A DNA stretch of 16,062 bases. It comes from a virus (Duplodnaviria > Heunggongvirae > Uroviricota > Caudoviricetes). This document shows, piece by piece, positions 4,963-5,098 of this stretch. Numbering within the stretch: the first letter of the stretch is position 1; each line of letters starts with the position of its first letter. The position numbers and the translations under genes are program-made. Below the pieces are notes generated by a model. That model saw only the letters and a list, made by a program, of their open reading frames with translations. It had not been told where the DNA came from and ran no database searches. The stretch is from positions 1 through 16,062 of IMG/VR virus record IMGVR_UViG_2698536355_000012. One strand, 5' to 3'.

Positions 4963-5098
4963 CGCTGTACTTCTCCATATTTTCGCAGCTGCACCTGCGG
5001 CTGTTTTTGGGTATGCGAATCCCTCGCCAGGTGGCGATAATTAACGGAATTACGCTTCACTAATTGCCCCGGCGCGCAGGGCAATTAAGGCAATGCAA

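Follow-up and report, generated by a model that had tools for sequence, protein, structure and literature searches.

In the lytic phages T7 and T3, the RNase III sites of the early region (R0.3, R0.5, R1, R1.1, and R1.3) lie between cistrons of a polycistronic early transcript and share a bipartite design: a hairpin of ~50-60 nucleotides (nt) with a G+C-rich upper stem of ~10 base pairs (bp), a small loop, an interruption, and a shorter lower stem, with no U-tract. Recognition of the T7 early intercistronic gaps as RNase III sites reportedly goes back to Dunn and Studier in 1983; cleavage in T7 leaves the upper hairpin on the 3′ end of the upstream mRNA, stabilizing it. Lambdoid phages and prophages also carry structured sites in their early-left transcripts, including lambda sib, the RNase III hairpins of the N leader, and dicF of the Qin prophage, where endonuclease cleavage alters the expression of neighboring genes. 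In Escherichia coli itself, RNase III cleavage sites have been described as enriched in intergenic regions inside transcripts (PMC6212723), and stable stem-loops that lack a U-tract are known to define the 3′ ends of steady-state mRNAs and to shield them (PMC6061677, Dar and Sorek 2018). The window analyzed here, the complete 16,062-nt stretch at positions 1 to 16,062 of IMG/VR record IMGVR_UViG_2698536355_000012, is a segment of a lambdoid prophage whose early-left genes lie on the minus strand. Immediately behind its yfdQ-like gene (5099-5929), and ahead of a gene for an HD-domain phosphatase (4423-4962), the minus strand encodes a 53-nt bipartite stem-loop (5048-5100). This structure is under selection and is an RNA feature of the sense strand of the yfdQ mRNA. 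Its function is assigned tentatively, with a probability of roughly 0.45, to mRNA processing or stability between cistrons of the polycistronic early-left mRNA.

The sequence-only reading of this window had pointed to a 9-bp stem in the gap, TAATTGCCC (5061-5069) with GGGCAATTA (5079-5087) around the 9-nt loop CGGCGCGCA, and the two arms are indeed fully complementary. Perfect inverted repeats of this kind (at least 9 bp, loop of 3-12 nt) occur at four sites in the 16-kb window, and dinucleotide shuffles yield 0.67 per window, or ~0.006 expected in a 136-nt gap. In the minus-strand RNA, the stem gains a U5078·G5070 wobble and a G5077-C5071 pair beyond the Watson-Crick pairs of 5087-5079 with 5061-5069, and the loop shrinks to 5 nt (CGCGC, 5072-5076; inner helix and loop together, 5061-5087). 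The outer limits proposed for the hairpin, 5045-5098, correspond roughly to an imperfect inverted repeat with arms at 5045-5069 and 5079-5103 that are 72% complementary, and this repeat proves to be a real extended helix. The noted hairpin is therefore real, but its description as a 9-bp stem alone falls short, as it forms the top of the 53-nt bipartite stem-loop in a gap that holds three hairpins. Below the inner helix (10-11 bp in the window) lies an imperfect middle, in which GUGAAGC on the 3′ side (5054-5060) makes interrupted pairing with 5088-5094 and a G·A mismatch is conserved. The structure is closed by a 6-bp outer helix between AAUUGC (5095-5100) and GUAAUU (5048-5053), the latter within a conserved GUGAAGCGUAAUU block. 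This outer helix takes in A5100 and A5099 of the UAA stop codon of yfdQ (5099-5101), and the stem-loop is always found 3′ of the stop. In all, the helix comprises 20 conserved pairs over 23 positions, with 1 additional pair in the window. The predicted folding energy is -14.3 kcal/mol for the inner stem and -19.5 to -24.3 kcal/mol for the extended stem-loop. Folding of ~70 nt around the hairpin in the window and seven diverse relatives gave the bipartite hairpin as the minimum-free-energy structure in the window and in six of the seven; the exception was one relative (L192; L numbers denote loci of the relative set), and the fold was partial in E. coli K-12. Across these folds, the inner helix spans 9-13 bp and the outer helix 6-8 bp, again with an imperfect middle between them. 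The outer-helix sequences are unrelated between lineages: AAUUGC/GUAAUU in the window, UGAUAGCG/CGUUAUUA in Rahnella, UUGCAU/GUGCAA in Serratia, and GUAAUAC/GUGUUGC in a type with a short gap.

Conservation of the structure was assessed in relatives drawn from 160 IMG/VR loci and 80 loci from bacterial contigs sampled at one genome per species. An alignment of 68 distinct sequences over 66 columns (A3), made with MAFFT without structural information, was scored for the 20 proposed pairs, in which the outer helix corresponds to columns 6-11 pairing with columns 54-59. Pairing was retained in 91.5% of cells, compared with 34-49% when the 3′ partners were slid by 1-3 columns. Changes on both sides of a pair were found at 13 of the 20 pairs (121 cells), and none of 500 column shuffles reached the observed value on any measure. 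Both parts of the helix contribute to this signal: the inner helix is 97.5% paired, with both-side changes at 5 of 10 pairs, and the outer helix and middle are 85.6% paired, with both-side changes at 8 of 10. Examples include the switches among A-U, U-A, and G-C at columns 22/43 and among G-C, C-G, and A-U at columns 24/41 of the inner helix. At least 10 different inner-stem sequences keep the pairing, among them TAATTGCCC, TAAATCCCC, AAATGCCCC, CAAATACCCC, TAATTACCCC, TAATAACCCC, and TAAGTGCCC. The G·A combination at the conserved mismatch of the middle (outer position 3) is present in 67 of 90 sequences. Loss of the stem in relatives had been named in advance among the findings that would count against the element; the stem is instead kept, with compensatory changes, across the Enterobacterales. 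Constraint extends over the gap as a whole, which is 74-88% identical between the window and 13 relatives, compared with 41-55% at third codon positions of the flanking genes, and equals the constraint on first and second codon positions.

The pattern of substitution also identifies the strand on which the structure acts. At inner-stem positions 1-9, G·U combinations fill 29 cells and A·C combinations none; the stem calling behind this count extends through Watson-Crick and G·U pairs only, and it ended early in a single sequence. If the structure were a palindrome in DNA, or an RNA transcribed from the opposite strand, the wobble pairs would be expected to show the reverse bias or none. Predicted folds of the sense strand are the more stable ones in 64 of 74 unique sequences, by a mean difference of 3.0 kcal/mol, and in all 15 stem-type groups when the extended element is folded. 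A covariance model built from A3 scores the minus strand of the window at 75.4 bits and the plus strand at 23.3 bits, and the corresponding values in relatives are 44-80 bits (sense) and 15-37 bits (antisense). Collectively, the G·U pairs in the absence of A·C, the folding energies, and the covariance scores indicate that the element is an RNA structure in the yfdQ mRNA. A protein-binding site, one of the roles originally suggested for the hairpin, is not borne out as a site in DNA: 5 of the 10 inner pairs switch identity yet stay complementary, the wobbles fit the sense strand only, and the sense strand is the better folder.

The stem-loop is a single-copy feature of the yfdQ locus. A search with the covariance model located the element once in the 16-kb window and once in each of the 54 loci, of 85 searched, that hold it; the site is always at the 3′ end of yfdQ and never elsewhere in the flanks, and in every case the element is intercistronic with a gene on the same strand downstream. 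The nearest annotated relatives, at ~84% identity, are phages Eeyore, Flotzy, and LLS and one E. coli prophage. In enteric relatives that carry the full three-hairpin gap, from genera that include Enterobacter, Citrobacter, Klebsiella, Kluyvera, Buttiauxella, Erwinia, Mixta, Kosakonia, Phytobacter, Rahnella, and some Serratia, the hairpin stands 11-12 nt past the yfdQ stop. The distance is ~19-24 nt in a second, Serratia-type group, and in Proteus, Morganella, Xenorhabdus, Marinobacter, and Pseudomonas the gene is followed by G+C-rich hairpins of a simpler kind. In one IMG/VR relative (L070), a tandem duplication of the end of yfdQ (TTCAAAGCCTAATTCAAAGCCTGATTGC), located in the ~30 nt around the stop and just ahead of the stem-loop, pushes the hairpin to 23 nt past the stop. 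The same element lies between yfdQ and yfdR in the cryptic prophage CPS-53 of E. coli K-12 (approximately NC_000913.3 2474850-2474911), and between sb36 and sb35 in Salmonella phage ST64B; it is present too in phages phiNP and 118970_sal3. The downstream gene is mostly an HD gene, but the same three-hairpin cassette also precedes at least four unrelated families (L189; L192 and L193; L202 and L208; L205 and L211; also L204, L206, and L209), and in L223 and L235 it is SSB genes that come after the simpler hairpins. The stem-loop thus travels with yfdQ whatever gene follows.

The T7 early sites offer a close structural parallel. When folded, the gaps between cistrons in T7 early mRNA give bipartite hairpins with an upper stem of 9-13 bp, an interruption, and a lower stem of 3-7 bp, at -17 to -24 kcal/mol, an energy similar to that of the element described here; the T7 RefSeq record carries no annotation of RNase III sites in these gaps. 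The element likewise sits between cistrons of a phage early transcript, offers approximately two helical turns (~20 bp or more) of mostly paired RNA in an untranslated stretch between same-strand genes, and lacks a U-tract. The two differ in that no sequence similarity is evident and in that the element belongs to a temperate lambdoid prophage, whereas T7-like phages are lytic. Similarities also exist with the protective 3′ stem-loops and REP-type intercistronic stabilizers of E. coli, which are stable stem-loops placed right after a gene, without a U-rich tail, and able to block PNPase and RNase II. REP-type stabilizers are repeated, whereas this element is single-copy. The protective stem-loops of Rho-dependent transcripts are followed by a C-over-G rut bias that is missing from the next 80 nt here (C=20, G=21), and a rut site downstream of the stem-loop was rejected on that count; those 80 nt are instead structured, and a translated gene starts ~85 nt on. 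With lambda sib, the N-leader hairpins, and dicF, the element shares a location in the early-left transcript of a lambdoid phage or prophage, but it differs from them in operon position, size, and sequence, and nothing here pointed to retroregulation or to the release of a small RNA.

From these parallels we infer a cleavage event, candidate enzymes, and an effect on expression. The stem-loop would fold after the last ribosome leaves the yfdQ stop codon, because the outer helix includes two bases of that codon. An endonuclease could then part the yfdP-yfdQ section of the transcript from the section with the downstream gene; candidates are RNase III, whose target would be the lower, imperfect half of a helix of ~23 positions, and RNase E, which would act in the A/U-rich linker just 3′ of that helix. 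The G+C-rich upper stem of 10-11 bp would be left at the new 3′ end, where it would block 3′-5′ exonucleases, and the two halves of the operon would come to differ in half-life and expression level. Several observations weigh against a processing or stability element. In the K-12 3′-end tables examined from the supplement of PMC7815308, no entry falls at yfdQ/yfdR. A table of the same source places a bicyclomycin-sensitive (Rho-dependent) site inside yfdP (NC_000913.3 2473888), so little transcription may reach the yfdQ-yfdR gap, and the locus may be poorly transcribed, in uninduced K-12. In its middle, the helix is interrupted by successive 1x1 mismatches and wobbles, whereas the T7 sites have an asymmetric internal loop. 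The outer helix, the G·A mismatch, and the unpaired GUGAAG block are conserved although a plain exonuclease barrier, such as the protective 3′ stem-loops, needs none of them, which hints at a specific partner. Finally, AUUUAUUG stands behind the G+C core in most relatives, where some termination may take place.

The last point leads to intrinsic termination, which the sequence-only reading had considered improbable given the lack of a T-run on the transcribed strand. Both statements agree with the results. The stem-loop is stable, G+C-rich, and close to the stop codon, as in a terminator, but the U-rich tract (~5 or more U in 8 nt) is missing: U accounts for 1 of the 8 nt after the full stem and for 3 of 8 after the G+C core. 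A terminator scan of the window did not call the hairpin. By comparison, the intrinsic terminator after cI, on the same strand of the same phage (7274-7297), has a 10-bp stem followed by seven U. A weaker version of the idea, in which the G+C core and the A/U-rich bases behind it form a leaky terminator or pause hairpin that stops a fraction of RNA polymerases after yfdQ, would split the early-left operon into a part that is always expressed and a part that depends on antitermination. Lambdoid early operons do contain internal terminators that are overridden by antitermination, and the position directly 3′ of a stop codon would suit such a site. In all 90 relatives, the first 8 nt beyond the full inner stem contain 1-2 U; beyond the G+C core the count is 3-5 U, with the window (3) at the low end; 39 of the 90 have 5 U in the 8 nt after the core (AUUUAUUG), satisfying a simple terminator rule. 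In Morganella, the hairpins behind yfdQ are canonical terminators (GCGGCAUUUUUAUAUUU), and GGGAUUUUUAAAG occurs in one IMG/VR variant (L072). Against these observations, an A-U to U-A swap at A3 columns 22/43, found in 17 of 68 sequences including the window, costs the tail a U while keeping the pair, which argues that selection is on pairing rather than U-richness. The would-be tail is also locked in the conserved outer helix, and the element always lies between two same-strand genes, not at the end of a transcription unit. Leaky termination is therefore considered an unlikely function of the element.

A different alternative takes in the whole intercistronic gap. From the gene limits, this gap measures 136 nt (4963-5098), one more than the 135 bp first given. 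It had been called the only sizeable gap of the operon, and it is the longest between int and the yfdP-like gene, the second longest being 53 nt (5930-5982), but a longer stretch free of open reading frames (ORFs) lies upstream at the pL leader (6826-7310). Analysis of 32 diverse full gaps with RNAalifold and pair counting revealed two further hairpins. Hairpin 2 (5024-5037) pairs UCGCC with GGCGA around a variable loop of 3-6 nt and is followed by a conserved GGGAUUCG; it is 96.2% paired, with both-side changes at 2 of 5 pairs. Hairpin 3 (4984-4999) has a 5-bp stem of variable sequence and a nearly invariant GUGCAG loop (4989-4994), and each of six pairs is changed on both sides in at least one sequence. 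It lies 7 nt upstream of the Shine-Dalgarno sequence of the HD gene (GGAGAAG, 4970-4976, read from the sequence and kept in the alignment); the start codon was likewise read at 4960-4962. Three covarying hairpins, with the bipartite stem-loop as the first, thus make the gap a conserved structured cassette. A scan of the minus strand found no promoter for the HD gene within the gap.

The conserved unpaired blocks (GUGAAG, GGGAUUCG, and the G·A mismatch) suggest a specific partner. The bipartite stem-loop could accordingly be the binding site of an RNA-binding protein within a larger regulatory cassette of hairpins 1-3, serving as a translational operator, an autoregulatory site, or a phage antitermination or anti-polarity module that acts on the following gene. 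Conservation beyond pairing, which includes GGCGAGGGAUUCG and the nearly invariant GUGCAG loop on a variable stem as well as the G·A mismatch and the GUGAAG block, favors such a site, as do the stronger conservation of the whole gap than of synonymous sites and the retention of the cassette with yfdQ ahead of at least four unrelated downstream families. Such an element would be undescribed, since the covariance models of Rfam 15, phage RNAs included, matched nothing in 4300-6100 with a cutoff of E≤10 and nothing across the full window with E≤1. On the other side, no protein emerged as a candidate binder, and inspection by eye showed no boxA-like sequence. The stem-loop lies ~2.1 kb downstream of a pL-like promoter (7206-7234), a distance unlike that of known nut and put sites. 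In the short gaps of Serratia and Proteus relatives, which have a different downstream module, hairpin 1 is present without the other two, so it can work alone. An RNA-binding-protein site is judged improbable. Similarly doubtful is the broader proposal that the whole 136-nt gap forms, in lambdoid early-left operons, a single cis-regulatory RNA cassette not described before, linked to yfdQ, recognized by a specific phage or host factor, and controlling the gene behind it, e.g., through regulated processing, translational control, or anti-polarity.

Several other roles for the gap RNA were rejected. An antisense small RNA was considered as the plus strand is terminator-like at 4985-5004, but both the model score and the folding of the stem-loop are poorer there. 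The plus-strand feature consists of hairpin 3 followed by TTTTTGG, and its T-run is the complement of a conserved CCAAAAA linker. A small upstream ORF coupled to the HD start was rejected, because a GUG ORF present in some relatives (in frame in L173 and L182) is absent from the window and from Eeyore. Frames with GUG or UUG starts that cross hairpin 3 and enter the downstream gene, or share its frame, were seen in L173, L182, L199, L202, and L208 and are not conserved. A stimulator of frameshifting or stop-codon readthrough was discounted as well: the UUUAAA before the stop is not conserved (UUCAAA in the window), and loop lengths vary by non-multiples of 3.

The composition of the locus is mosaic. 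In a comparison with L004, L030, and L169, the yfdQ gene of the window is 91% identical in DNA sequence to the Enterobacter type, which has the TAAATCCCC stem, and the gap is 85-88% identical to the L030/L169 type, whose own yfdQ is only 76% identical; the change falls at the yfdQ stop. The HD gene is only 65-78% identical to that of any relative examined. The occurrence of the same cassette before unrelated genes indicates a recombination junction near the downstream start codon. The stem-loop is also flanked by a direct repeat, AAGCGTAATT, whose first copy comprises the last yfdQ codons and the stop and whose second copy provides the 3′ strand of the outer helix. This repeat is regarded as a by-product, because UAAUU is nearly self-complementary, the first copy is coding, and the second is part of the outer helix. 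A DNA-level element, whether an operator palindrome, a site of recombination or integration, or a linker whose only role is to promote mosaic exchange among phages, could draw on the near-perfect palindrome within its direct repeat, the mosaic breakpoint exactly at that palindrome, and the L070 duplication, but is very improbable given half-sites that change freely while complementarity is kept, wobble pairs and folding energies that favor one strand, a repeat already accounted for, and a single copy per locus unlike dispersed REP- or MITE-like repeats. More specific versions fail in the same way: a dispersed repeat (REP/BIME or MITE) is rejected because the element is single-copy and tied to yfdQ, an insertion with target-site duplication because the element is single-copy and the flanking AAGCGTAATT copies are explained by outer helix and coding sequence, and an integron attC-like site because GTTRRRY/RYYYAAC cores are absent and the structure is strand-specific in RNA terms.

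The element matches no Rfam family and is unannotated in K-12, ST64B, and the other phage records examined, and the papers found on yfdQ/yfdR, CPS-53, ST64B, and DUF2303 are silent on the gap 3′ of yfdQ; the class to which it belongs, intercistronic mRNA stem-loops, is a known one. Its presence in CPS-53 and ST64B means that existing strains of E. coli K-12 and Salmonella are suited to direct tests of a widespread, strongly conserved RNA structure. If the stem-loop is a processing or stability signal, temperate phages would have a means to set unequal expression of adjacent early genes without promoters or terminators. The A3-type seed alignment and its covariance model are now available for a new RNA family, and the cassette marks a recurrent mosaic junction that bears on module swapping among lambdoid phages. 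The structure also allows spurious calls of small ORFs in the gap to be corrected. In Eeyore (L001), for example, an annotated 30-aa hypothetical protein (6631-6723) spans the stem-loop and is probably spurious.

The remaining features of the window are consistent with a lambdoid prophage. Its early-left genes encode an integrase, an exonuclease, an HNH endonuclease, the HD phosphatase, YfdQ, and a YfdP-like protein; beyond them lie a CI-type repressor (7311-7970), a Cro-like protein, an O-like replication gene, methyltransferases, and Ant. The downstream cistron encodes a YfdR-like deoxyribonucleoside 5′-monophosphate phosphatase (phrog_318, E=3e-96), and the yfdQ-like gene a 276-aa DUF2303 protein (Pfam PF10065, E=2e-62; phrog_210). 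The translated product (5102-5929) matches PDB entry 9o7m, "YfdQ protein" (E=3.6e-40). The 36 chains with YfdQ sequence in that entry suggest a large YfdQ oligomer; no paper on the structure was found. Next to the cI terminator, the pL-like promoter on the minus strand (TTGACC-17-TACATT) is flanked by repeated AAGGTAAC motifs, and an inverted repeat of the same motif is found in the cI-cro gap (8028-8052); these motifs are probably operators. The pL leader on the minus strand (6826-7200) is G+C-rich, extends for ~370 nt with no minus-strand ORF of at least 40 aa, has no Rfam match, and gives a fold z-score of -2.0. Parts of it are kept in 70 phage records (ST64B, ZF40, and Klebsiella and Pantoea phages), mostly without an annotated feature, and it may be an undescribed leader RNA. 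Two other perfect inverted repeats in the window, each of 10 bp, lie inside genes: AAAGGGGTTC/GAACCCCTTT in the integrase gene (1053-1080) and AATCTCCCGA/TCGGGAGATT in the Ant-like gene (13846-13869).

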